NCBI GenBank assembly: GCA_964603435.1
Contig: CAZRUM010000003.1
Span: 1-44,614, forward strand
Origin: an uncultured Gammaproteobacteria bacterium
GTDB taxonomy: Bacteria > Patescibacteriota > Patescibacteriia > Magasanikbacterales > UBA922
Length of the DNA: 44,614 bases
Reading direction: 5' to 3'
Under the pieces are notes generated by a model that did no database searches, was not told the origin of the DNA, and saw only the letters and a program-made list of their open reading frames with translations. Position 1 is the first letter of the stretch. Every line of letters starts with the position of its first letter. Below are positions 1 through 44,614 of this stretch, in pieces. Both the position numbers and the translations under genes were made by a program.

Positions 1-3000
1 CCCCATCAAGACTATTACACCACCCCCAGTTATCCAAAACCTGAACTTTTGGTTTAAAGACACAGACTTTTTCGGCATCTGAATTTAGCTTATAAATTTC
101 TCTTTTCATTTCATCTGTAAGAAGACCAATGCCCGGTAAAGAATCCGATTCAATATCAAAATTAGCACTTGCCAAATCACAACTAAGACTTTTGAAATAT
201 TCTTTGTAACTTGGCGTACAAGCACGTGGAGCATCTCCAAATCTACGCTCTCCTAAAGTACTATATCCTTCCGGTTGAGTTATATAATGACCAGTTTTTG
301 CACAAATTGTATTACCTACACCCATAAAAGTACAGTCTGCATTATCAAGACAAGTCATAGAAGTATTCCTACATCTGCCCAGCTCCTCTTCTTCGTAATT
401 AAACTCGTCTTTGCTAGCACAGTATGGTTTACTGTTTTTGAATAAACCATTTTCTATAAATAAATCATCATCACCATCATCCCAATTAATCATTACACGT
501 TTCAAAGGCATGTGATTGTCATCCACCGTTACAAAAAATCTAAGTATAGCTGGTAAGGTGCGATAGGCTACGATAGGGTCGGGATAGCCATCTAGTTTAC
601 CACCGTCTATACCATCCTCATCTGGGATTGGTACCCCGTCAGTACTAAAACCAAGACTATAATTATTCATAGTACCATTGCGCATATTGATGGTAAAATT
701 ATTTTCTTCGCCAGCAGTACACCTATCACTTTCAGCTGATACACAGATATCTGGATTAAGTGAATATATCTTTGGAGGAAAAGTTTCATTACCCCCATTA
801 CCCAAATCACCACTACGGTCCTCATCATTCAACAAACCAACTCCATAATTTGGCAACAGATTTTCTTCTTCTCCTTCTCCTGCAAATTTATAAGGAAAAC
901 CAGTAGTCGAATCAGGTTTTAAAGTTTTATTTATAAACACTTTTTTGAACACATCAAAAATAGCCTCTTGAGCTTCTGGTTTATCACGTTCGGACAAGCT
1001 ATCTACAAAATTATCAGAAAATACTCTTTTTGAATCATTATCCAAAAGATTTTTTAGACTACCACAATAATCTGTAAAACCATAATCAATACTTATCGAA
1101 GATAGCCAAGTTGTACGACAAGAATAAGGTATACCAAAATTTGCATATGACAAGAAAGAAGAATGGCGTAATACTTTTGGATCTTGAAAGTTTTCGCTTA
1201 TTGTTCCCTTGTCAGAGAGTATCATAGCTCCAAACGGTTTGTTTGGCTGGTCTTTTTCTAAGAATGATTTATAAAATGGACTAGGATGTCTCTTGCTGTC
1301 AGTATTATATTTTGGAGCAAATTCCCAAACCCTATTGGTCCAGGCCTTGTCTGTAGTCATGTTAAAATCAGCTCCTGGATCCTTATAAACCTGAGCAAAA
1401 TCAACACACTGATTATTTAGAGTAGCAATAGTAGCCAACATAATACCAGCATCTTCTGCATCTGCATTATTATGAGCAAAACAAAAACGAGAAACATAAC
1501 CCAAGAATTCTCCATCTTTGTTAAAATCCATACCAATAGCTAACCAATTATTTGTATTAAAACCCTTATCTTCTTCCCCTCCACTAAGACCAGAATACTC
1601 TTGAGTATCGTGTTTACATACAGTTGCAAAAGGATCATTAAGATGAAAAGACTCTTCACGACCATTGGTGGGGACATAATCTGTGTTATAAATACTCTCA
1701 ACCCCAAACCATTTTTGCAACACTTCTGTACTGTCAGCAAACAACATCACATATCTATCAGTTATTTTGTTTCTTTCGTCTGCAAGAGCATTAACAATAG
1801 CAGTATCTTCAGTAGAAAAAAGTCCATTCTCATAATTATTAAAAGATAAATCTACCAAGTCAACTTCATCCACATGATAAGACCACACAATATTTTTTAT
1901 TGTTTTGTTTCTACCCCTAGTAAAAATTTTAGATTCAGAATCAGAATAAGAAGCATTAGATATATTTTCTAAAAAATCAGACTTTACCCCATTTCTTAAT
2001 TTGTTGAAATCTATGTACATGTCTTTGGACAACAAGGCAGGCAACCTACCTTCAGCACCAAATGGAAAAGCCAAAGGAACAAAATATACCCTGTCTAAAT
2101 CTGAAATATTTAAAACACCTTCATATTTAGAACGATTAACCATGTTAGCAACATTATTTACATCACTCATCCAAGGTCCAGGAGACATAGCTATGGTTGA
2201 TATATTCCACCGACCATCACTCTCTGGAGGATCATAATAACTATCTTCTAATGATTGTTTTATATCTTGTTGTTTATAAAAATAACTGTAATCTGTGACA
2301 ACATTACTCTCTGGCCAGACCCTTGGAGGATGCATAATAGTACCATAGCTTACACGATTTGCGGTTGGGTGGGGAGCAAAAGAAAAAATACTTTTGATTG
2401 AAGTTTGATCATTGCTAGGAACCTCGTTATTACACCACTTTATATTCTCTCCCACATCTTTTTGTAAACAACCAAAACTGTATCCATCGCTTACCAAACC
2501 TGTTTCAGTACGCAACAATATACTATTTTTACCAATAAATTCCCAAGCCCATCTTTGCATCGTTCTTGACAAAGACCAAATTTCATTATCACAACAAACA
2601 GCTTTGTCATAACCTTCAGAGTTGGATATTTTTTCCTCATTTTCTTCCCCCCACATAGTGGGTTCACAAAATACAAGGCCACAATCCTTTTGTAAAAGAA
2701 GATCGGAATCAGCACAAACAGGATTGTCCAAATCGTCATTAAGTTCAGTACGTTTTGCTTTTTGGTAACCCTCTGGTAAAAAGTATTTATCATTTTGTAT
2801 TTCATTATACAAATCAGCTACCTTTGTTTTATCTGGATATGTTATTTCAAAAGTGGACGAAGCTATATTTACTGTTCTTGGCACCTGACTCTTAGTACCT
2901 GGATAATTATTTGCTTCACTACTAACTACATCAAATCTATATTCTACAGATAATTTCCAACCTTGAGCCACACACACATCAGCCGGACCAGTAAAAATAG

Positions 3001-6000
3001 GTTCATTCGGTTGATAATTTGGATATGCGGGTTTATTTTGAAATAGATAATCTACATCATATTTTGTAAAATCTACAACACCTTTGAACTCACCAAAATC
3101 AGGAGCAGGAACATTCATCCTAGGATTCCATGCCCAATGCCAAAAATGATAAGTATTTTCAGGAGTATTAGAAAAGGTTTTATCATCTTCATAAGGAGAA
3201 ACCGCAAAAGTATTTGTAGAATATGCAGGGAAAGCAGCACTAATAGGACCCCGGGCAACATTAGCTGGAGAAGATGATAAATCAACTCTTTTGTGCTTAT
3301 AAAGATTATTTTTATAACTTATAACACTCTCATCAAATACTATGTTTTTATTACCATTCTCATCTTCTAATTCTAACCAATCTGATTTAGCCTTATTTCT
3401 ATCTAAATATGCTTGACCTCCTAGTACCAATACATCATAAGTATTCCCCTCGTCGTTATTATCCTGCACAGTAGTATAAATGCTCTTATAGGGAATCATA
3501 CGATCTCTCCAATATATTTCCTTTCCATCATACTTAGCAACATAATCTTCCATTTCCTGTTTTCTTGCTTCTACCATATCTTTACAGCGATTATAGAATA
3601 CTTCAATTTTATGAGATTCGTTATTATAGGCTGAGTCTTGCTTAGTTGTTCCAAAAGCAAAAATATTTAAATCTATATTATCAGGATCATACGACATATA
3701 ACCTGTCATTTCCTCATCAAAATTATAATGATTATAAGATGATTCTACACAATAAGCTCCGGCTCCAGCTTCTCCATCTATTGCCAAATTGAAACCAGCT
3801 GAATCTGAAGATTCATATATATCAAATTTATTTTTTACTTCTTTTGGTAACCAGGTTAGACATGGGTATTCTACTACATTTCCACCTGGAGCTGCTTTTT
3901 TACCCAGTGGCCTACTCTTATCATACTCCAAACAAAAACCTTCTTGTCCCAAATAAGTACTTTGTGTTTGTTTTAATATACAAGTCCCCCTGTCATTAGC
4001 ATCTCCACAATCACGATCATCAAAACAAGGGACATTATCAGTTGGTAAAGTAGTATCCGTAGCATTGTCATAGCGCCCTCCACCAGAACAAATACCAGCT
4101 GGAATAGATTCATAAGTATATGGCCAATAATCAACTACTGAATTTCTATAAGTAACCTTACTATAACCACAGGAACATTCTCCATCCTGACAAACCTGAA
4201 CATTGTCAAATTCATTTTTCCTATAATCTAGCGCAAAACGTTTTACCCCAAGATCATTCTCAAAAACTTCATGTCCTACATTTGGATTCAAAACCAAAGC
4301 CTTAGAAAAAGGAGAATTGTCTTCTGGATAAGATTTGCAAGAAGTTGTTAGTAATTCTTTTTTGATGATTTCATCAGAAAGCTCTTCCACTGCAAAACCT
4401 ATTTCATCCCCACCGACTGGCATAACACAACCAATACCGTTTATACATTGACCTTTTTCTATCAATTTATCTCCCGCGTGGCTACCTGTATTTTCACATC
4501 TCTCTGCACCTTCAGAAGTATTACAATTAAATCTTTTGTCAACATAAACTAAATAGGGTTTATTATCTATATCAATTTGTTGCAAATCACCAACTGAAAA
4601 TTTGTTATAGAGAGAATAACCAGAATATTCTTCGTCATACCAGCTAGTACCACGACTAATATAATTTTCATAATCAAGAAAAGGTAACTCGCGCCCAAGA
4701 CTAGCAGAGGATTCCCACAAAGCACACTCACCACCTGGTCCCATCTCCAAACAACTACCATAGGAATAACATATTTTTTTACGAGTTCCATCAGCTTGCA
4801 AAATACTCTTATAACTTTGACAAGCTAACCATTCATTACAAGTCCTGTCACGATCAACTTTTAAAATTATATTGGCGTCCAAAACACCTGTACTTACTGG
4901 CCGAACAGGTAGATAACGCCCGACCTCTCCACTCGCATAATCTTTCTTTTGACTATTTGCTTCATAAGTAAGAGCTGTGTTATAAATTTTATTTGGCTCA
5001 TCAGTCTTATCAAATAAAACACAGCCATCATTTAAATTTACTTGGCTCTCACATTCTCTTGAACGTCTTTCTACTTCTTGGTCATAAATAATATAATAAG
5101 CACGTCCTGCTGAATCAATTCCGCCAGTATCAGCTTTATCAATTAATTCACGACAATTGTTGGCTGACGATGGACAGACACCTACCAAACCTTCGTACAA
5201 TACTGAACCATTGGAAGGTAATTGATATTCATAATTATGGCGAGGACCACAAGGTTCTGGCATTTCATCAATTTTTCCATCCTTATTTCTATCGATATCC
5301 CTATACCAACCGGAATATTGATTACCATTTTTATCTTCCACCAACGGACGATACACACACAAACCATTACCATTCAATTTTGGATCTTTGAAATAAGCCG
5401 GTCCATTGTCAGATTTAAATTCTCCACAAGATACCTGGTCACTAGTACATAAAGTATCACTATAATTACCTGGATCGTTTTTTACAAAAGTTTCGACAAA
5501 TTCAAAATCTGTGTCGATAGGACTAGTAGACCATTCTTTATATTCGCGCGCAGCTACTCTGGTACAGCCCATATCCTTATCATAACAAATATAATTTTCT
5601 GTATCTGTCAGATAAATTGGTGAATTTACTGGTGTATCGGCTGGAATAATAATTGTAGAATCAACTACCCAATCTTCAATCGCTTTAGCCTCTACTCCAT
5701 ATGGAAGCATAACTTCCTCAACAAAACAACCAGTCTGTCCATTTTCTATCTGACAAGTCCCAAGCTCTTCTGGTTCAACCCCTATTTCCCCCTCTGCTTC
5801 TATTTCAATTTTACATTCACCTACATAATCAACAACATCACTGACACACCACAAATTGTAAACCAAGACATCTTCAGAATCCAGGGTATTATAGGTATCA
5901 TACAAAGCAGTACAACCCACTGCCTCAGGTCGACACAGGCTATCAAAGCCAATTGCAAAAGCAGTTCTATCTCTATCATCTCTGTAAGCCTGACAACCTA

Positions 6001-9000
6001 GAGCCAAACCTGGGAAACCATCGTATGGACTAACATCGCAAGAAGTAGAAATATCATAACCTTCACTAGTTTTCCAAGAATCTTTTATAAGAGCATATTG
6101 ATCTTCCAATCTAGTAACACGTACATTATCCAAATAATAACTCTTTCCAGAAGTACGAGGATCAACAATAAACTTCAGACCAACTTCACTACTAGTAGTA
6201 CCCGTAAATTGTACTGGACCAAATTTATATTCTTGCCATTCATTACCGAGAGATACTGGCAAATTTTGTTGTAAATTTATATCATAAGTAAAACTACTAT
6301 TTTCAAATTCAGCTTGTTTAAAATAAATTTCATTAATATTTTGTGCCTCACCGCGAGCCCAAAAACTCAATTCATACCAAGCATAGCTATCAATATCTTC
6401 ACCAGGTTGAAATATATAAGTTATATCACTTGACGCTTGCAAGGAATACCCACCAACATAAATCGATTCCGGTCTGACTTTGGCAGTAGAGGTCCAGCCA
6501 GTCTGAGCTATTTCCAAAGCAGCATCATCATCTGATGTCGGTTCAAAACCAGCAAAGTAAACTTCTTCTATATTACCACCTTGATTTCCTACATATTTAC
6601 GACAACCATTGGCAATAGCAGGACAAGAAATTGATTCACTAGGAATAGAATAATAAATACAGGTCTGATAGCCTTCATCATAAAAACCACCATTACTACA
6701 GCGTTGGCACTCACCACTACCACCGTCATTACCATTCCAAAGACCACCTTTTCTAGTACAGCTATCTGCTGAATCTAGATTATTATCAACAGCCAGATAT
6801 GCTTTTGTCTTGCGCAGAGGATGACAATCATCTGATACAATCACCGTCTTACTTAAAATTCTATAATATATACTACCTTCTCTATCATAAAGTGCCCGGC
6901 AACCTGAATCAAAACCACGAGCCCCCAGATTGTATGGACTATTTAGATGTAAATTATATATATCTTCATTACAGCTAGCATAATTTTCTTCCAATTCTAC
7001 TTCACTATCACCCGCATACACTGGGGAACCAAGTGGAAAATCTGACCTAAGACTAGCAAAAGCAGTCGCATCCAAATAAGCGACGTCATCAACATCCACT
7101 GGCTTCATCCGATGAATTTTCAACACATAACCTGTCAATTCAGAACCTTCCCAAGAATAATAAGCTTTTTCATTTTCCCCACTAGGATCTTCACAATATT
7201 TTAAATCAATATAATATTCCAAACCTTCACCACCAGCAGACATCTCATCTATGTTGGTAAATTGATCACAACCAGCATAGACACCATTACATTCATTGGC
7301 GCCTTGACTAGAATAGTCATTACCAGGAGTGAAATAAAGTGGAAATTCTTCTGGTTCAAACTCTGTTGCTAACTGTTTATAAGTATCATAACCCACACAC
7401 TCAGCCTGACAGAGATTATCACCAATAATACCAGGAATTTCTGGACTAGTTGGATCAGCTATACTAGAATACAACTGACAACCCACTTCACTTGAGATAC
7501 AAACCTGTGAAAAATCTGCACATTCCTCTGGTCGATCTTTTATAGACACCAGATCAACTTTGGTCTGTGGCCAGTCTATGTCATACTCTCCATCGTAAAT
7601 ATCTTTGTCATAACAACCCAGATAATCTGGTGCTTTTTGCAAATAAACTGGATTACCCTGTCCCCCATCATCCCTCACATCATAAAAAAGATTACAACCA
7701 TCGGCGTCTTCGCTACAAGTGAAGTTGGCAATTTTATTATTAAAATAAATATTTTGATTCCAACTACTTAGTTTTTTATCAACATCAAGCTCTAGGTTTG
7801 TTAGCCAACCTTCTTTATCTCCTTCTAGGGCGTAAGGTTGACAACCCACAGACTCGAGATTACAACGACCATAATCAAGTGTCCTATTTAAATATGGGAT
7901 TACTTCACCTTTATTATTTACATAAGTCTGGCAAGTATTGTATTGTTTATCACAAGTCTCAACCCCTAGTTTCCAAATATTTTTTTCTTGTAAACAATAA
8001 CTATAATAATTTTCTATTTTATTAGTATCCGTTTGACTCTCTTCTTCTGTAAAAATTGTAGTTGAATACTCTACACATTCTGTCCGCCTAACATCTCCGC
8101 CTGAGTCAATTAGCTGTGGACCCACAACCAGAGATTCACAACGAATCTCGGGAATTTTTAAAATCCAATTTGGATTGACAAGATGACAAAAAGGTTTGGC
8201 AGAACTTGGTACCACTATTTCATTACCACTTGAGTCCTTTTCATAATTACAATCCTCAAAACCATTCACCACATTTTCTAAAGTCCAATTTTCTAGATTG
8301 TCAGGATCAGCCCTCAAAGCCGCAATCTCAAAACCAAGTGGCAAAATTCTCGCTTTTCTTAATTTTTGAATATTATAATAACAATAACCATTTTGATAAC
8401 AACGAACAACATCCTGATTATCAATTTCACGCTTTGGTGAAATAAATGACCACTTGGCATGCAACATGTCTTGATCCATTGCCTCTTTAATAGTTAGAGG
8501 GTTATCTTCTGTTCTGCCAACTTCCAAAGCTCTCTGCAAACCAGTATCCATGACACAATTATTAAGACTGAGACCAGCCCCACTCTCTTCACAAGCTGCA
8601 AATTCTGTAAGTAATGGATAATTATTTAACTGTTGATTGGGAAAATCTGTAAATAAAAAGCTGAAAGCTTTCTCGGCCTTTTCTTTATTTAATACAACTT
8701 GACTATAAAAATCTGTAACTGCCTCAGTAGAGGCATCACCTGACGACGATCCAGACAACAAGTCCCCACTCATTAATCTGTCCAATAAACTAGTGGCCAA
8801 AGTATTCAAAAAGACACTCGCAGCCTGAGGTAATATTTGTAACATCCCTGCACCATAAACACCTGCTATTTGTTCAGATGTCATTTTTGAATTATGAGTT
8901 GCAGAAAATAATTCCATTTCTTTGGCCACGGTTTGACCAGGAGTTTTTATCTTATCAGAAATAAGATCTGTAACTGCTTTTATGCCTCCCCCTTCTAATC

Positions 9001-9808
9001 TTGATACTTCGGCGGATTTTTCTTCCTTAGCTTTCAAACGATCGAGTTGTGCCATAGCCCCCATTGCAATACCAAAATCTGTATCTTTGACACGAATAGA
9101 ATCATGAAAAGTACGAGCAATCAATCCACGACCACCAGGACCATATTTTCTTTCAAAGGCCTCAGCGCTCCAAGAATCGCTTAAGTTTTGCCAATTACAT
9201 TTTGGGGTAGGCCCGCCACTGTTCGCACCATTGACTCCATACTCATTATCATACATATTGCGCAAGCCAATCTGAATATACAATTGAGCTTGTAAATTTG
9301 GTGTCTGACAAAGATTGAGACCAAAAGGTTGGCCAAATGATTCTATACCCTCAGCTACTGAATCCAAAGCTACATTTTTAAAATAATCACCTGGAGAATT
9401 TTGGTAAATAAGAGCCCCCTTACCCTTACCACCATAAGACACGTACTTAGCTGCATCATAAGCCAACTTACGTGTAAAATATGACATACCATTCATCAAA
9501 GCTGACATAGCAGCAGCTGTCATGCCGGTTTCTACTTGTTCGAGTATTGACACAATTGTAGAAGGTGTATCCGCAACTACAGCTACAGGTGCTCCTAACG
9601 CATTTTTACCTGCATTTGAAGCCGCCTTAGCTGCCTCTGCCGAGTTCGCTATTTTATCTAATGATTCAAATAAAGAAGTCAAAGGGGGTAGCGCAGCCTG
9701 TGCACTATTTTTAGAAGTCAAAGAAAAAATCCCAAACAAATTCACCAACAAAAAAATCACCAATAGAATACTTAGGCCTGCTTTATTTTTTTTATTTAAA
9801 AAATACAT
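1..9808 (-). CDS. giant secreted cysteine-rich surface protein; 5' end complete, 3' end beyond window (at least 3269 codons)
   Basis: Hand translation of the reverse complement from ATG 9808-9806 stays open in one frame to base 2. The track lists no ORF in this frame because it never reaches a stop; the four minus ORFs listed inside it are in another frame. N-terminus MYFLNKKNKAGLSILLVIFLLVNLFGIFSLTSKNSAQA looks like a signal peptide. Many Cys modules follow. Confidence 0.85.
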   Translation of the reverse strand, partial: MYFLNKKNKAGLSILLVIFLLVNLFGIFSLTSKNSAQAALPPLTSLFESLDKIANSAEAAKAASNAGKNALGAPVAVVADTPSTIVSILEQVETGMTAAAMSALMNGMSYFTRKLAYDAAKYVSYGGKGKGALIYQNSPGDYFKNVALDSVAEGIESFGQPFGLNLCQTPNLQAQLYIQIGLRNMYDNEYGVNGANSGGPTPKCNWQNLSDSWSAEAFERKYGPGGRGLIARTFHDSIRVKDTDFGIAMGAMAQLDRLKAKEEKSAEVSRLEGGGIKAVTDLISDKIKTPGQTVAKEMELFSATHNSKMTSEQIAGVYGAGMLQILPQAASVFLNTLATSLLDRLMSGDLLSGSSSGDASTEAVTDFYSQVVLNKEKAEKAFSFLFTDFPNQQLNNYPLLTEFAACEESGAGLSLNNCVMDTGLQRALEVGRTEDNPLTIKEAMDQDMLHAKWSFISPKREIDNQDVVRCYQNGYCYYNIQKLRKARILPLGFEIAALRADPDNLENWTLENVVNGFEDCNYEKDSSGNEIVVPSSAKPFCHLVNPNWILKIPEIRCESLVVGPQLIDSGGDVRRTECVEYSTTIFTEEESQTDTNKIENYYSYCLQEKNIWKLGVETCDKQYNTCQTYVNNKGEVIPYLNRTLDYGRCNLESVGCQPYALEGDKEGWLTNLELDVDKKLSSWNQNIYFNNKIANFTCSEDADGCNLFYDVRDDGGQGNPVYLQKAPDYLGCYDKDIYDGEYDIDWPQTKVDLVSIKDRPEECADFSQVCISSEVGCQLYSSIADPTSPEIPGIIGDNLCQAECVGYDTYKQLATEFEPEEFPLYFTPGNDYSSQGANECNGVYAGCDQFTNIDEMSAGGEGLEYYIDLKYCEDPSGENEKAYYSWEGSELTGYVLKIHRMKPVDVDDVAYLDATAFASLRSDFPLGSPVYAGDSEVELEENYASCNEDIYNLHLNSPYNLGARGFDSGCRALYDREGSIYYRILSKTVIVSDDCHPLRKTKAYLAVDNNLDSADSCTRKGGLWNGNDGGSGECQRCSNGGFYDEGYQTCIYYSIPSESISCPAIANGCRKYVGNQGGNIEEVYFAGFEPTSDDDAALEIAQTGWTSTAKVRPESIYVGGYSLQASSDITYIFQPGEDIDSYAWYELSFWARGEAQNINEIYFKQAEFENSSFTYDINLQQNLPVSLGNEWQEYKFGPVQFTGTTSSEVGLKFIVDPRTSGKSYYLDNVRVTRLEDQYALIKDSWKTSEGYDISTSCDVSPYDGFPGLALGCQAYRDDRDRTAFAIGFDSLCRPEAVGCTALYDTYNTLDSEDVLVYNLWCVSDVVDYVGECKIEIEAEGEIGVEPEELGTCQIENGQTGCFVEEVMLPYGVEAKAIEDWVVDSTIIIPADTPVNSPIYLTDTENYICYDKDMGCTRVAAREYKEWSTSPIDTDFEFVETFVKNDPGNYSDTLCTSDQVSCGEFKSDNGPAYFKDPKLNGNGLCVYRPLVEDKNGNQYSGWYRDIDRNKDGKIDEMPEPCGPRHNYEYQLPSNGSVLYEGLVGVCPSSANNCRELIDKADTGGIDSAGRAYYIIYDQEVERRSRECESQVNLNDGCVLFDKTDEPNKIYNTALTYEANSQKKDYASGEVGRYLPVRPVSTGVLDANIILKVDRDRTCNEWLACQSYKSILQADGTRKKICYSYGSCLEMGPGGECALWESSASLGRELPFLDYENYISRGTSWYDEEYSGYSLYNKFSVGDLQQIDIDNKPYLVYVDKRFNCNTSEGAERCENTGSHAGDKLIEKGQCINGIGCVMPVGGDEIGFAVEELSDEIIKKELLTTSCKSYPEDNSPFSKALVLNPNVGHEVFENDLGVKRFALDYRKNEFDNVQVCQDGECSCGYSKVTYRNSVVDYWPYTYESIPAGICSGGGRYDNATDTTLPTDNVPCFDDRDCGDANDRGTCILKQTQSTYLGQEGFCLEYDKSRPLGKKAAPGGNVVEYPCLTWLPKEVKNKFDIYESSDSAGFNLAIDGEAGAGAYCVESSYNHYNFDEEMTGYMSYDPDNIDLNIFAFGTTKQDSAYNNESHKIEVFYNRCKDMVEARKQEMEDYVAKYDGKEIYWRDRMIPYKSIYTTVQDNNDEGNTYDVLVLGGQAYLDRNKAKSDWLELEDENGNKNIVFDESVISYKNNLYKHKRVDLSSSPANVARGPISAAFPAYSTNTFAVSPYEDDKTFSNTPENTYHFWHWAWNPRMNVPAPDFGEFKGVVDFTKYDVDYLFQNKPAYPNYQPNEPIFTGPADVCVAQGWKLSVEYRFDVVSSEANNYPGTKSQVPRTVNIASSTFEITYPDKTKVADLYNEIQNDKYFLPEGYQKAKRTELNDDLDNPVCADSDLLLQKDCGLVFCEPTMWGEENEEKISNSEGYDKAVCCDNEIWSLSRTMQRWAWEFIGKNSILLRTETGLVSDGYSFGCLQKDVGENIKWCNNEVPSNDQTSIKSIFSFAPHPTANRVSYGTIMHPPRVWPESNVVTDYSYFYKQQDIKQSLEDSYYDPPESDGRWNISTIAMSPGPWMSDVNNVANMVNRSKYEGVLNISDLDRVYFVPLAFPFGAEGRLPALLSKDMYIDFNKLRNGVKSDFLENISNASYSDSESKIFTRGRNKTIKNIVWSYHVDEVDLVDLSFNNYENGLFSTEDTAIVNALADERNKITDRYVMLFADSTEVLQKWFGVESIYNTDYVPTNGREESFHLNDPFATVCKHDTQEYSGLSGGEEDKGFNTNNWLAIGMDFNKDGEFLGYVSRFCFAHNNADAEDAGIMLATIATLNNQCVDFAQVYKDPGADFNMTTDKAWTNRVWEFAPKYNTDSKRHPSPFYKSFLEKDQPNKPFGAMILSDKGTISENFQDPKVLRHSSFLSYANFGIPYSCRTTWLSSISIDYGFTDYCGSLKNLLDNDSKRVFSDNFVDSLSERDKPEAQEAIFDVFKKVFINKTLKPDSTTGFPYKFAGEGEEENLLPNYGVGLLNDEDRSGDLGNGGNETFPPKIYSLNPDICVSAESDRCTAGEENNFTINMRNGTMNNYSLGFSTDGVPIPDEDGIDGGKLDGYPDPIVAYRTLPAILRFFVTVDDNHMPLKRVMINWDDGDDDLFIENGLFKNSKPYCASKDEFNYEEEELGRCRNTSMTCLDNADCTFMGVGNTICAKTGHYITQPEGYSTLGERRFGDAPRACTPSYKEYFKSLSCDLASANFDIESDSLPGIGLLTDEMKREIYKLNSDAEKVCVFKPKVQVLDNWGWCNSLDG

Positions 9809-18905: not shown

Positions 18906-19121
18906 AATAGTAATAGTGTACCGTAAATTTAACAAAAACAAAACCCCATTACGTACTCCCTTCCATATTTCCAAACCTTGGAAAGACAGAAGGCAACGCA
19001 ACGAGGTTGTGTTGTGTTACCCACCCCTATTACCGGGATTTGATGTAGTCAATCACCACCTGCTGCACCAAGAGGTGTGATCGGAGGTAGGTCGATCACA
19101 CACAGAGCAGATAAGGATCCT

Positions 19122-19304
19122 CTAGCCCCACCTCGCCGAATGGCTGCCAGATTCGACAATCTGGTGTCTGCGGACAGGCACATGTTGCGGAAGCTGAGCT
19201 TTTCGCAACTTTCGAAGACGACTGATGATAGCCCCCTCACGAGCCTTCTTGTCCACCTGCTTCCTTTTACGACTCGCACTACGTGTAGTAGATCCTCGAC
19301 CCAT
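19122..19304 (-). CDS. small basic protein (60 aa) in a G+C-rich island
   Basis: GGAGAGGGGG SD, 4 nt, then ATG. MGRGSTTRSASRKRKQVDKKAREGAIISRLRKLRKAQ... Own promoter. No family recognised. Confidence 0.4.
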   Translation of the reverse strand: MGRGSTTRSASRKRKQVDKKAREGAIISRLRKLRKAQLPQHVPVRRHQIVESGSHSARWG

Positions 19305-19356
19305 AGGGCCCCCTCTCCATTTTTCTGACAAAGTCAGACTAATTGACAATACAGAG

Positions 19357-19385
19357 ATTTAACCATATTTTATAAAATTTGTCAA
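19357..19385 (-). promoter_or_regulatory. sigma70-like promoter of the small basic ORF
   Basis: Minus strand TTGACA, 17 nt, TTAAAT. Confidence 0.5.
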
Positions 19386-19395
19386 TGTTTATTTC

Positions 19396-19428
19396 AAAAA
19401 TAAAAAGACCACCTATGATTAGGTGGTC
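19396..19428 (-). terminator. yidC intrinsic terminator
   Basis: Minus strand GACCACCT AATCAT AGGTGGTC followed by TTTTTATTTTT. Confidence 0.7.
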
Positions 19429-25210: not shown

Positions 25211-26404
25211 CTATAAACCCAACCTCTCAGCCACATAATCTACATCCTTATCTCCCCGACCAGATAAATTGATTATGATAATTTTATCTTTATCTAAGGT
25301 TGGAGCAAATTTTATGGCTTCTGCCAAAGCATGTGAACTTTCAAGGGCAGGAATAATTCCCTCAACTTTTGACAATTCCTGGAATGCTTCCAAAACTTCC
25401 TTGTCATCAGCCGTCACATATTTTACTCGTTCCTTATCTTTCAAATTAGAGTGTACAGGACCGACACCTGGATAATCTAACCCGGACGCAATAGAATGAA
25501 CAGGTAGAGCCTCACCTTTGTCATCTTGCAACAAATATGTAAACATACCGTGTAAATTGCCAGGTTTCCCCAAGGTCAGTGTGGCTGCGTGTTCTCCTGG
25601 CTTGAAACTACGTCCAGCAGGCTCCACTCCAATCATTTTCACATCATCATGCAAAAACTCATGAAAAAGACCAATGGCATTGGAACCACCACCAACACAG
25701 GCAATGAGATAATCCGGTAATCTATTTTCCACTGCCAAAATTTGTTCCTTGGCTTCACGACCAATAATAGACTGGAAATCTCGTACTATCATCGGAAAAG
25801 GATGAGGACCAACAACTGAACCAATAGCAAAAAATATATTTTGAGGATCCTGCACAAAAGCCCCAAAAGCACTATCGACGGCTTCCTTTAGGCAACGCCC
25901 ACCTGACTCTACCGACACCACTTTTGTGCCGAGAAGTTGCATACGGATAACATTGGGATGTTGTTTAGCTACATCAATTGCCCCCATATGAATCTCACAC
26001 TCAATCCCAACAATCGCAGCTGCTGTGGCTAGTGCCACACCATGCTGACCAGCTCCGGTCTCTGCCACAAGTTTTGTCTTGCCCATTTTCTTAGCAATCA
26101 AAGCTTCTCCCAAAGTATGATTTATTTTGTGTGCACCTGTATGATTTAGATCTTCACGTTTCAAATATATTTTTGCTCCACCCAATTTAGCCGTTAAGTT
26201 TTTGGCAAAATAAAGTGGTGAGGGACGACCGACATAATTTTTTAACAAATCATTATATTCTTGAATAAACTCGGGATCAATTTTTATTTTTTCATATTCT
26301 ACAGCAATTTCGTCAAAGATAGCTTTTAACTCTGGTGGAATAATTTGTCCACCATATTCACCAAAATATCCTTCTTTGTTGGGTAGTTGTTTTAAGTTTG
26401 TCAT
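25211..26404 (-). CDS. trpB: tryptophan synthase beta chain (stand-alone in this window)
   Basis: [23 protein letters not shown] and [10 protein letters not shown] motifs; 397 aa. No trpA adjacent. Confidence 0.92.
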
Positions 26405-26424
26405 ACTATTATATAATTTAATAA

Positions 26425-26453
26425 AATAAAAAAACGCGCTTTATCCAGCGCGT
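26425..26453 (-). terminator. intrinsic terminator between the trpR-like gene and trpB
   Basis: Minus strand ACGCGCT GGATAA AGCGCGT followed by TTTTTTTATTTT. Confidence 0.65.
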
Positions 26454-30847: not shown

Positions 30848-30885
30848 AAATAATATATTTTTAAATAAATGAAGAATAAATATTG

Positions 30886-30967
30886 TGCCGATGGTGGGAC
30901 TCGAACCCACACGCCGTGAAGCATGCACACCTGAAGCGCACGTGTATACCAATTTCACCACATCGGC
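30886..30967 (-). tRNA. tRNA-Leu (anticodon CAG), long variable arm, no encoded CCA
   Basis: Hand-folded cloverleaf: acceptor GCCGATG/CATCGGC, anticodon stem TGCGC/GTGCA with loop TTCAGGT, T arm GTGGG TTCGAGT CCCAC. Confidence 0.85.
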
Positions 30968-36175: not shown

Positions 36176-36562
36176 ATGAAGGACATCATGGACATTACTT
36201 TCCGTGACGGTTTAAACAGCCGCACTACCGACGACTTCGTGACCAGAGCGGTTGGTCTCCTTCGGTCCAACCTTCGTAAAATCAAACTGTTGACAGCTCA
36301 GCTATGTGGTTCCGAGAGCCTACGACTGAGTCCGGAAAATGAGGTCCGTGCACATGTGAAAAGACTGCGCAAGGTGGTCGCGCGTAGTGGGTTCTCCACT
36401 TTCCGTGGACAGCTCGAGATGATCGAGCGTGACCTCTGCGACACTGACGGCTACTCCGTAGCCGCTGTAAAGCGCGACGAACTCTCGCCGCACTTCATCA
36501 CATGCTGTGAAGAAATGATCAAATTCGCCGAACACGTCGAAAAGACCTTCGGCAAACTTTAA
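36176..36562 (+). CDS. hypothetical helical protein (124-128 aa) in a G+C-rich island
   Basis: ORF in the track; alternative ATG at 36188 preceded by GAAGGA. No family recognised. Confidence 0.45.
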   Translation: MKDIMDITFRDGLNSRTTDDFVTRAVGLLRSNLRKIKLLTAQLCGSESLRLSPENEVRAHVKRLRKVVARSGFSTFRGQLEMIERDLCDTDGYSVAAVKRDELSPHFITCCEEMIKFAEHVEKTFGKL

Positions 36563-42254: not shown

Positions 42255-43142
42255 TTATCTAAAATACGCATCTCTATCAAACACATTCAAAACTGGATAG
42301 ACTCTAACATCGGTTACACGTAAATTTGAAAGCATTGATCTGACATCTATATAGCGCGTTTCACCACCTAGAAATTGTTCCTCTACTACATAAAGATAAC
42401 CTGCTGTACCACCGTCAACCAATTCAATTATAAATTCTGGTTCCCAAAAATTATAAACACTGTCATTGATCACATCAAATTCTACAATATTACTTGGAAT
42501 ATTGGCTGCTCGACTAGATCGAGTGTATTTAAAATTTTCAATGATAAATCTTTTTCTACTCTCCATAAATTCTGCCACATCTTTTATGTCATGCGTATCT
42601 ACTTTTTGCCAATCCACTTCAAAAACCAATTCTACTTTTCCAGGAAAACGTTCCGCTTCCTGCCCAAAGAAAACCAAAGGCATAGTCTCACCCGGCAAAA
42701 CCACCACTTGCCTAGTCTCTGTTTCACCTTCACTATGTTTGTATCTAAAATCAACTTTAGCTACCCAACGCTCATTTGAATTTATAACCAAAGTAGCAAA
42801 ATCATATTTGCCAGTCGCACTTTCAAATATTTCTACATTATCAACACGCAAATTTTGCGGGCCATAAACATAATTCAAACTTTCATAATCAACAAATTCA
42901 CTTGGTTGATTATTATAAATAATTTGATCCTGCGGATAACCCACTACCAAATAAAAAATAAAATAACCAAAACCATAAGAAACACTAGCAATACACCACA
43001 TAACCAAAACAGTCATGCCTATTTTTCTAAGCCTAGCTTTGTGACGCAAATACCATTCCCCCAGCTTCAAACTACGATTACTAAATTCACCAGTAGGATC
43101 CCGGTATTGCTCAAATTTATTTTCTTTTTTCTTTCCAAACAT
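42255..43142 (-). CDS. hypothetical membrane-anchored protein
   Basis: ATG at 43142 (MFGKKKENKF) preferred over the TTG at 43163. One TM, then a beta-rich ectodomain. Confidence 0.6.
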   Translation of the reverse strand: MFGKKKENKFEQYRDPTGEFSNRSLKLGEWYLRHKARLRKIGMTVLVMWCIASVSYGFGYFIFYLVVGYPQDQIIYNNQPSEFVDYESLNYVYGPQNLRVDNVEIFESATGKYDFATLVINSNERWVAKVDFRYKHSEGETETRQVVVLPGETMPLVFFGQEAERFPGKVELVFEVDWQKVDTHDIKDVAEFMESRKRFIIENFKYTRSSRAANIPSNIVEFDVINDSVYNFWEPEFIIELVDGGTAGYLYVVEEQFLGGETRYIDVRSMLSNLRVTDVRVYPVLNVFDRDAYFR

Positions 43143-43304
43143 AATACCAACATTATACCACAAATAAAAAAACCATTCTATAATTAAAATGATTTTTTAA
43201 CCCAAATATATTTTTACAAACAAACTTGGGAGAAGTGCGGACAACGAGGTCCGCGGGTTGAAAGATCGGAAGGAACGAAAGGAACGGGAGAGGATGAACG
43301 AACT

Positions 43305-43493
43305 CTAGTGTCCAGAGCCATAGATCTTGGCACGAAGCCCTGCCTGTGAAAGCTCCGGACCAGGGGCGTAGGCGACACCAAGCTCTTCGGCGGTTTTGTC
43401 GGTGAAAGAACGAGGGCCCTGCTGACTCCTCTTCATCTTCCATTGGCTGGCAGGCCGTCGTGGTTTACGGCGAGAAAATCCCGATACCCTCAT
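43305..43493 (-). CDS. small basic protein (62 aa), third gene of the G+C-rich operon
   Basis: AAGGAGG SD, 5 nt, then ATG. MRVSGFSRRKPRRPASQWKMKRSQQ... Confidence 0.5.
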   Translation of the reverse strand: MRVSGFSRRKPRRPASQWKMKRSQQGPRSFTDKTAEELGVAYAPGPELSQAGLRAKIYGSGH

Positions 43494-43513
43494 GTGTCCT
43501 CCTTTTCCCGAGT

Positions 43514-43747
43514 CTACTGACTCTTGTTGCTCAGACCAGCCTGGCGCACCTGCTCGAGCAATTCGCGCTGTTCTTTATCAGTCGGACACTCACAGCCGAG
43601 AAAACCGACGCCGTAGTCGACATCTCCGAGGTGTTCGGTCTCGACTGGTCCGCGATCACGGAGCCTTTCCTGAACTTCCCGCCTCACATCCTATGGCGAA
43701 GGTGATGGCAAGGGAGCCAGAAGCCAATCACTTGCTCGAGTAAGCAT
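43514..43747 (-). pseudogene. paralogue of the 43770-43967 gene, interrupted by an in-frame TAG at 43691-43693
   Basis: AAGGAGGTGTGA SD plus ATG. MLTRASDWLLAPLPSPSP, stop, then DVRREVQERLRDRGPVETEHLGDVDYGVGFLGCECPTDKEQ... aligns with its neighbour. Confidence 0.5.
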
Positions 43748-43769
43748 TTTATCACACCTCCTTAACGCA

Positions 43770-43967
43770 TCAGCCCAGGAACTGAGTCCATCTGCGAGCT
43801 CTCTCTTCGGCATCAGGATCCTCACAGCGAAGGAAGCTGCCGTCGTCACCATCGAGATCACTGAAATGCACGGTCTCGACAGGACCTTGGTCTAAGATCA
43901 TAGCTTGCCACTCTTTCACTGGAGTGGGAGGAATTTCGAATCCATCCAAAACCCAAGGATTACCCAT
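43770..43967 (-). CDS. small acidic protein (65 aa), first gene of the G+C-rich operon
   Basis: GGAGGTGTGA SD, 4 nt, then ATG at 43967. MGNPWVLDGFEIPPTPVKEWQAMILDQGPVETVHFSDLDGDDGSFLRCEDPDAEE... Confidence 0.55.
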   Translation of the reverse strand: MGNPWVLDGFEIPPTPVKEWQAMILDQGPVETVHFSDLDGDDGSFLRCEDPDAEERARRWTQFLG

Positions 43968-44006
43968 TTTCTCACACCTCCGTGTGGCCGTTGACGTTGT
44001 ATACCT

Positions 44007-44035
44007 AGTATAGATAATTACCCAAAAAAAGGCAA
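44007..44035 (-). promoter_or_regulatory. promoter of the three-gene G+C-rich operon
   Basis: Minus strand TTGCCT, 17 nt, TATACT. Confidence 0.5.
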
Positions 44036-44141
44036 TTGAAACCCCTTGCCCTCCACACCCAAACATGCTATAATATCGTCGTAATTTTAATAAAAACTGC
44101 CGACTCCGTAAGACTCGTCGGCTTTATAAGCCTTTATATTT

Positions 44142-44614
44142 ATGCCAATAAAACGTGTTTCCAAAGGAAGAATTGAAAAAAAACCAACTGCAAAAGAGGT
44201 AGTAAAAAAAACACCTGTTGAAAAAAAAGAGGTTGTTAAAGTTGCAAAGAAAGCTCCCGCTGAAAAGAAAATCCGTAAAACAAAAAATGATGGTAGCTAC
44301 AGCGCCAAAAATATTACAGTACTCGAAGGACTTGATGCAGTTCGCAAAAGACCAGGAATGTACATTGGCTCTACCGGTGTCACAGGTCTTCACCACATGC
44401 TATGGGAAGTAGTGGACAATGCTTTTGACGAAGCCATGGCTGGACACTGCGATGAAATTTTAGTTAGACTTTTACCAGACAATTGGGTAGCTGTGACCGA
44501 CAATGGTCGTGGTATTCCAGTTGATATGCATCCTATAAAAAAAGTTAGTGCTCTAGAACTCGTATTGACCCAGCTTCATGCTGGGGGAAAATTTGGTGAT
44601 AGTGGTTACAAAGT
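44142..44614 (+). CDS. gyrB: DNA gyrase subunit B, N-terminal part (runs off window), with a Lys-rich N-terminal extension of about 45 aa
   Basis: Hand translation: ...[50 protein letters not shown]...GRGIPVD. Absent from the track because there is no stop in the window. Confidence 0.92.

Follow-up and report, generated by a model that had tools for sequence, protein, structure and literature searches.

Among described systems, those closest to the locus analysed here are horizontally acquired ORFan islets, type II toxin-antitoxin operons, the anti-defence proteins Ocr and ArdA, and the YacG-type gyrase inhibitors. Acquired ORFan islets are recognized by (i) an atypical G+C content and GC3, (ii) absence from the same site in relatives, (iii) donor-type expression signals, (iv) a lack of homologues, and (v) a position between housekeeping genes. 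Type II toxin-antitoxin operons are small, tightly spaced and co-oriented, and the acidic product is encoded upstream of the basic one. Ocr and ArdA are small and strongly acidic, and both are longer than 65 aa. YacG is a four-cysteine zinc finger of ~65 aa with an acidic tail. The locus, here referred to as the islet, is a minus-strand trio of tiny ORFs in the window, i.e. the whole stretch of 44,614 nucleotides that was analysed. It shares all five properties with acquired ORFan islets and the gene arrangement with type II toxin-antitoxin operons, while its first ORF shares small size and strong acidity with Ocr and ArdA, and length, an acidic tail and a place next to gyrB with YacG, which is compared only because gyrB is adjacent. 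Taken alone, the islet is an orphan cassette of a familiar kind, the small horizontally acquired islet. Our overall explanation, to which we assign a probability of about 0.55, is that it is a recently acquired orphan cargo cassette that may encode an acidic/basic partner pair and may already be decaying.

The three ORFs are ORF1 (43770-43967; 65 aa, pI 4.1, net charge -9), ORF2 (43514-43747; 77 codons, net charge -4) and ORF3 (43305-43493; 62 aa, pI 11.3, net charge +9), all on the minus strand. The initial annotation had described an acidic 65-aa and a basic 62-aa product in a series of three minus-strand ORFs 20-22 nt apart, each preceded by a strong Shine-Dalgarno (SD) sequence, and these features are borne out: the gaps are 22 and 20 nt, and GGAGG lies 9 nt 5' of the ATG of ORF1 (43977-43981, minus strand), 9 nt 5' of that of ORF2 (43757-43761, minus strand) and, as AAGGAGG, 4 nt 5' of that of ORF3 (43498-43502, minus strand), which begins 20 nt beyond the ORF2 stop. 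The ribosome-binding context of ORF2 is a duplicate of that of ORF1 (direct repeat D3). Both strands of the 44.6-kb window together hold only 47 GGAGG sequences and, beyond the three in the islet, only ~4 of them are followed, after 3-12 nt, by a start codon with an open frame of 40 codons or more.

Upstream of all three ORFs lies one single promoter-like site, from which we infer that they are co-transcribed. This sigma-70-like candidate, TTGCCT-N17-TATACT (44007-44035, minus strand), is present as initially annotated; however, it matches the consensus at 9 of 12 positions, and the number of promoter-like sites in the region is unremarkable (4 compared to 1.9 ± 1.5 in shuffles). It is arranged back to back with the gyrB promoter and, judged by the spacer alignment with relatives, may in part be ancestral host spacer. 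At the 3' end, sequence inspection and folding identified a pyrimidine-rich tract followed by a GCGGAC-N6-GTCCGC hairpin (43237-43301, hairpin at 43254-43237, minus strand). The hairpin had also been pointed out before and exists, but it lacks a T-run, is not called by terminator prediction and has a z-score of only -1.5 when the short 3' tract is folded. Because a terminator is not evident, the islet mRNA may read through into the downstream gene for a 295-aa protein.

ORF1 carries an intact copy of a domain with the signature GPVET-x-H-x2-D-x-D...FL-x-CE-x-P. That ORF2 is a paralogue of ORF1, as proposed in the initial annotation, is supported by BLASTP (E=1e-8, 50% identity over a 40-residue core); what had been overlooked is an in-frame TAG at codon 19 (43691-43693, minus strand), 18 codons after the SD-led ATG at 43747. 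Likeness to ORF1 (W-x-L...P-x-P) extends upstream of this TAG, so that ORF2 is an interrupted copy of a full-length paralogue. The ORF2 copy now carries a nonsense codon, which is the same in all five independent assemblies (the window, L001, L002, L003 and L005). TAG as a sense codon of the host was ruled out, TAG being the ordinary stop in 3 of 25 long host ORFs. A GTG lies 3 nt downstream of the TAG (43685-43687), and re-initiation could therefore occur; the 57-aa remainder of ORF2 starts at this codon (GTG 43687), which one gene caller used as the start of a 57-aa product (P0002).

The differences between the two copies have a codon-level pattern. Over 63 aligned codons pS is 0.77, i.e. 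saturated, and pN is 0.41; the core alone gives 0.82 and 0.31, respectively. Different codons encode 14 of the 25 residues that are identical, and these 25 identities compare to 13.7 ± 2.5 obtained when the 92 nucleotide differences are placed randomly (P ~2e-4), in a test that is somewhat biased by the protein-guided alignment. Saturation of synonymous sites together with non-saturation of replacement sites argues that ORF1 and ORF2 evolved as proteins. At the level of sequence, this pattern clearly indicates that the duplicated unit has a long history as a protein under protein-level purifying selection, and ORF1 and ORF2 are best described as the products of an old duplication of an acidic domain that is ~50 residues long and had not been seen before.

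For ORF3, which has an Arg/Lys-rich N-terminus and is not hydrophobic, the SD and ATG are the only support for a coding status, as the paralogue control covers ORF1 and ORF2. Structure prediction, a check proposed initially, gave models for ORF1 and ORF3, but both are of low confidence. In the ORF1 model (AlphaFold2, pLDDT 61.5, pTM 0.24) helices at residues 17-26 and 53-64 flank the conserved core, which weakly suggests a helix/beta-hairpin/helix fold. In the ORF3 model (pLDDT 68.6, pTM 0.21) the protein is mostly coil with one short helix; as far as a model of this confidence allows, the prediction is of a largely disordered protein and not of a folded toxin. An HTH_17/excisionase-like reading of ORF3, prompted by a 'TAEELGV...' stretch, was dropped, as Pfam has no match.

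Sequence and structure searches returned essentially the islet itself. A word-indexed search of 5.8 billion clustered proteins with ORF1 and ORF3 recovered self only. A profile of ORF1 and ORF2 run with HMMER over 1.84 billion representatives gave, besides self, only two teleost NLR-type repeat proteins; these were rejected, because single repeats score between -4 and 7 bits (independent E-values 1e5-1e9) and the total is a sum over near-identical repeats. The earlier statement that the shared core matches no known family holds against Pfam, PHROGs, PADLOC and NCBIfam (E up to 10 for Pfam, NCBIfam and PADLOC) and against PDB sequences, none of which gave a match for the islet proteins. Foldseek searches of PDB and BFVD with the low-confidence models were likewise without a match, as were blastn and tblastn searches of INPHARED (50,697 phage genomes) and PLSDB (72,556 plasmids) and pattern scans of IMG/VR viral contigs. 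A scan of GTDB genomes produced a single match, which lies antisense to a permease gene of an Eisenbacteria MAG with high G+C and which we consider spurious. Rfam had no family at threshold; among weak matches at E up to 10 the best (E=0.0066) was to a model of a mammalian lncRNA, fell far short of the gathering score and appears chance-like. Searches of the literature gave nothing specific to the islet. By these searches the islet ORFs are orphans, and the acidic domain appears to be previously unseen.

The genomic context of the islet is that of an insertion. The islet adjoins gyrB, as stated initially, although gyrB lies on the plus strand (ATG at 44142) and is divergent from the islet operon. 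On the other side is a conserved gene for a 295-aa membrane protein (42255-43142, minus strand), for which we found 17 relatives, one of them named Candidatus Magasanikbacteria, which places the uncultivated host among the CPR/Patescibacteria as a Magasanikbacteria-like bacterium. The closest relative is L006, whose 295-aa protein is 84% identical; here gyrB and the 295-aa gene are divergent and 154 bp apart, and the two genes are also adjacent in L008-L011, L012, L013-L015 and L017-L018, with spacers of 123-200 bp. Alignment of these spacers reveals that ~0.85 kb (roughly 44039 to 43166) is absent elsewhere and that two conserved host elements bracket it. On the gyrB side this is the gyrB promoter TTGCCC-N17-TG-TATAAT (44046-44074, plus strand, with TGcTATAAT after the N17 spacer), which is conserved in relatives as ATTATAGCA / GCAAGGGG in minus-strand reading; on the other side it is the extended -10 TGGTATAAT of the 295-aa gene (43152-43160, minus strand), which lies 9 nt before the ATG at 43142, so that the mRNA of this gene looks leaderless.

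Because gyrB directly adjoins the flanking gene in the closest relative and in at least five other lineages, the islet is a lineage-specific insertion. Its maximal extent, based on the spacers of L006, L008, L012 and L013, the L006 spacer sequence and the G+C profile, is 43166-44039, with each boundary uncertain by ~40 bp and a G+C-rich core at ~43237-43995. G+C content is 0.52-0.58 over 43200-43900 (~0.55 for the islet) compared to 0.36 for the whole window. The jump in G+C and GC3 and the comparison with relatives substantiate the foreign-composition island proposed initially, and we consider it very probable, from sequence comparison, that ~0.85 kb of foreign, higher-G+C DNA with protein-coding ancestry was inserted into the divergent spacer in this lineage. 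Signs of how it arrived were sought at both ends and inside: the top match between the two flanks does not exceed that in shuffles (236/500) and indicates no flanking repeat or target-site duplication, the islet contains no integrase, transposase or large ORF, and no tRNA gene is nearby, the only one in the window being at 30885-30967.

Sequence identical to the islet is present in contigs from four other samples that were assembled with different assemblers. L001 (Logan assembly) spans both flanks, and both junctions are seen in it and in the window; the gyrB-side junction is also present in L005, the only contig in which a search of JGI metagenomes recovered the islet. These observations bear on the possibility that an assembly chimera joins CPR DNA to DNA of another organism. 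The abrupt change in composition and the fact that L002 and L003 are short contigs consisting almost only of islet would fit a chimera, but the same junctions recur across samples and assemblers (window, L001, L005), and we regard the chance of such an artefact as negligible.

Comparison of window positions 43029-44614 with 5035-6620 of L005 identified 27 differences, all of which are in 44103-44606 (the 5' part of gyrB and its leader) and none in 43029-44102. The islet is thus 100% identical in a contig in which gyrB differs by 4-5%. This pattern suggests either a very recent recombinational spread of the islet with its flank between diverged strains or a strain-chimeric contig. Separately, L001 (1-211), in a part of gyrB just past the end of the window, shows that after ~codon 165 gyrB of the window strain departs abruptly from L005 and L006 and has 14 aa inserted; either the gene is a mosaic or the contig end is chimeric. 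The gyrB leader also contains a GCCGAC...GTCGGC hairpin just 5' of the gyrB start (44099-44122, plus strand), which has an unremarkable z-score; six of the L005 differences fall inside it, including one compensatory A-U to G-C and one change to G-U.

The expression signals of the islet are those of a donor rather than of the host. GC3 is 0.48-0.56 in the islet ORFs compared to 0.27 ± 0.03 in host genes, and a perfect GGAGG precedes all three islet ORFs compared to any SD core in only ~3 of 31 host genes. In many host genes a TATAAT box lies no more than ~10 nt from the start codon (e.g. 43142-43160 and 26404-26430), suggesting that leaderless or very short-leader mRNAs are widespread in the host genome. 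The islet clearly has the appearance of a compact operon with donor-style translation signals in an SD-poor host. Because its GC3 has not shifted towards the host value, its acquisition was probably recent. The donor would be an SD-using, higher-G+C organism or mobile element unsampled in current databases.

The islet is not the only insert of this type at this site. In L007 (1130-3010) and in a 337-kb JGI contig, a different insert of ~1.4 kb and 55% G+C occupies the same spacer between gyrB and a gene for a ~300-aa protein. It encodes a polytopic membrane protein of 461/466 aa that has no Pfam match and has its own TTGACA-N17-TGcTATAAT promoter and GGAGG. We rejected the idea that the islet is what remains of this 461-aa gene, as tblastn detects no similarity. 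As a different G+C-rich insert is found at the same spacer in another lineage, the gyrB/295-aa spacer appears to be a place where foreign DNA lands repeatedly. Similarly, the presence of an unrelated membrane-protein gene at the same site makes the adjacency to gyrB look like an insertion hotspot instead of a functional link, and this adjacency is probably not functional.

Two further G+C-rich patches in the window (19020-19400 and 36176-36562) carry SD-led orphan ORFs, and relatives have G+C-rich orphan ORFs of their own, most with G-rich SD-like sites. By these sequence features the islet appears as one of a class of G+C-rich orphan inserts. The patch at 19020-19400 (minus strand) lies between yidC and the gene for a 358-aa protein, has a promoter-like TTGACA and a GGAGAGGGGG site, and contains an ORF for a 60-aa Arg/Lys-rich protein (19122-19304, MGRGSTTRSASRKRK...) without a Rfam or Pfam match; comparison of this ORF with ORF3 gave no homology. 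At 36176-36562 (plus strand) a 128-aa orphan ORF of 52% G+C is located between the PrmC and DUF3048 genes, a slot that in relatives holds unrelated small ORFs (L006 11744-12154, with a strong SD; L013 9394-9732, 60% G+C). A single ORF of at least 3266 codons (2-9799, minus strand) runs off the start of the window and probably encodes a giant surface protein, such as CPR genomes often have.

The net charges of the three products (-9, -4 and +9) are complementary, in favour of the following mechanism, which is our best guess. In this model, the cassette would be transcribed as one mRNA from the sigma-70-like promoter and its ORFs would be translated in an SD-led manner; ORF1, and maybe the 57-aa core of ORF2 after re-initiation at the GTG that follows the TAG, would form acidic helix/beta-hairpin/helix proteins that bind and neutralise a basic, disordered and probably nucleic-acid-binding ORF3; and the cassette would be a self-contained inhibitor/effector cargo pair and not part of a core function. 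Taken jointly, these steps are doubtful. Several points weigh against the overall explanation of a recently acquired cargo cassette: with homologues absent, conservation of the frames can be assessed only within the paralogue pair, ORF2 is interrupted by the TAG, the models are of low confidence, and its arrival route has left no trace in the form of integration scars or mobility genes.

The islet might instead be dead cargo, i.e. environmental DNA residing in a tolerant intergenic spacer, functionless in the host, with the TAG at 43691-43693 as a first step of decay. A composition that has not drifted towards that of the host and so implies little time under host selection, confinement of the cassette to one lineage, a spacer that tolerates different cargo in another lineage, and other G+C-rich orphan ORFs scattered in the host genome and in relatives all fit this reading; however, neither ORF1 nor ORF3 is damaged, nor is any of the three SDs or the promoter-like site, translation from the GTG could still yield the conserved core of ORF2, and complete identity to L005 in spite of the divergence in gyrB fits recent spread as well as recent arrival. 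We consider dead cargo a tentative alternative, about as likely as the acidic/basic pair mechanism. A functional new acidic/basic small-protein module, e.g. an inhibitor-effector or counter-defence pair, is quite improbable. Such a module would be part of a G+C-rich, SD-bearing accessory gene pool that moves among CPR lineages by recombination into promoter spacers, which would explain how the islet can be 100% identical in a contig with a diverged gyrB.

Kinship to toxin-antitoxin, anti-defence or phage-derived modules, which was suggested initially, is supported by none of our tests: family, phage, plasmid and viral searches were empty, and a mobility gene, a tRNA gene and a significant flanking repeat are missing as well. 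In a type II toxin-antitoxin-like system, acidic ORF1 and ORF2 antitoxins would neutralise a basic ORF3 toxin. Pfam, NCBIfam and PADLOC contain no matching toxin or antitoxin model, ORF3 is predicted as largely coil and is not hydrophobic, ORF1 and ORF2 have no recognisable DNA-binding domain (RHH, HTH, AbrB) in a search limited by model quality, and the break in one 'antitoxin' copy seems to have had no effect; this makes a toxin-antitoxin system very unlikely even though the acidic-first and basic-last order, the small sizes, the tight spacing and the opposite charges are as expected for one. Just as unlikely is an anti-defence or DNA-mimic gene of phage or plasmid origin, with the acidic ORF1 (pI 4.1, charge -9) in the role of Ocr or ArdA; in favour of it, ORF1 is small, has an SD and is closely packed, as early genes of mobile elements are. 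Neither as DNA nor as protein is the islet matched in PHROGs, the 50,697 phage genomes, the 72,556 plasmids or IMG/VR; by synteny, the genes around it are chromosomal housekeeping genes (gyrB, an FtsW/RodA-family gene and the gene for ribosomal protein L25), with no phage or plasmid genes nearby; and a phage of a host with 36% G+C is not expected to have 55% G+C. G+C-rich intergenic stretches in A+T-rich genomes are often RNA genes, and the islet could by this argument be a structured non-coding RNA with incidental ORFs. Yet Rfam yielded only chance-like matches below threshold, neither of the two short elements that were folded, i.e. the hairpin in the gyrB leader and the 3' tract containing the GCGGAC hairpin, has a remarkable z-score, and the three SD-plus-ATG starts and the codon-level pattern of paralogue differences are those of protein-coding genes, so that an RNA gene is highly improbable.

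As a recently acquired cargo cassette, the islet is an example of the uptake of foreign DNA by reduced CPR genomes. Of more interest is the general pattern, in which G+C-rich, SD-bearing cargo resides in an SD-poor CPR genome and the same spacer is used repeatedly. If the islet proteins are expressed and interact, they would constitute a new family of small proteins; otherwise, the islet would capture newly acquired DNA just as decay sets in.

Returning to the described systems, ORF1 and ORF2 differ from the four-cysteine YacG in having one and two cysteines, respectively. Compared to Ocr and ArdA, ORF1 is shorter, lies outside a phage or plasmid context and has no sequence similarity or reliable structural similarity to either. 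The islet departs from type II toxin-antitoxin operons in that it lacks a recognised family or fold, its basic protein is predicted to be disordered, and the gene for the acidic protein is duplicated with one copy interrupted. The closest parallel is the horizontally acquired ORFan islet, from typical examples of which this one differs in being very small (0.85 kb), in being without an integrase, transposase, tRNA target or flanking repeats, and in its location inside a divergent promoter spacer that elsewhere holds other G+C-rich cargo.
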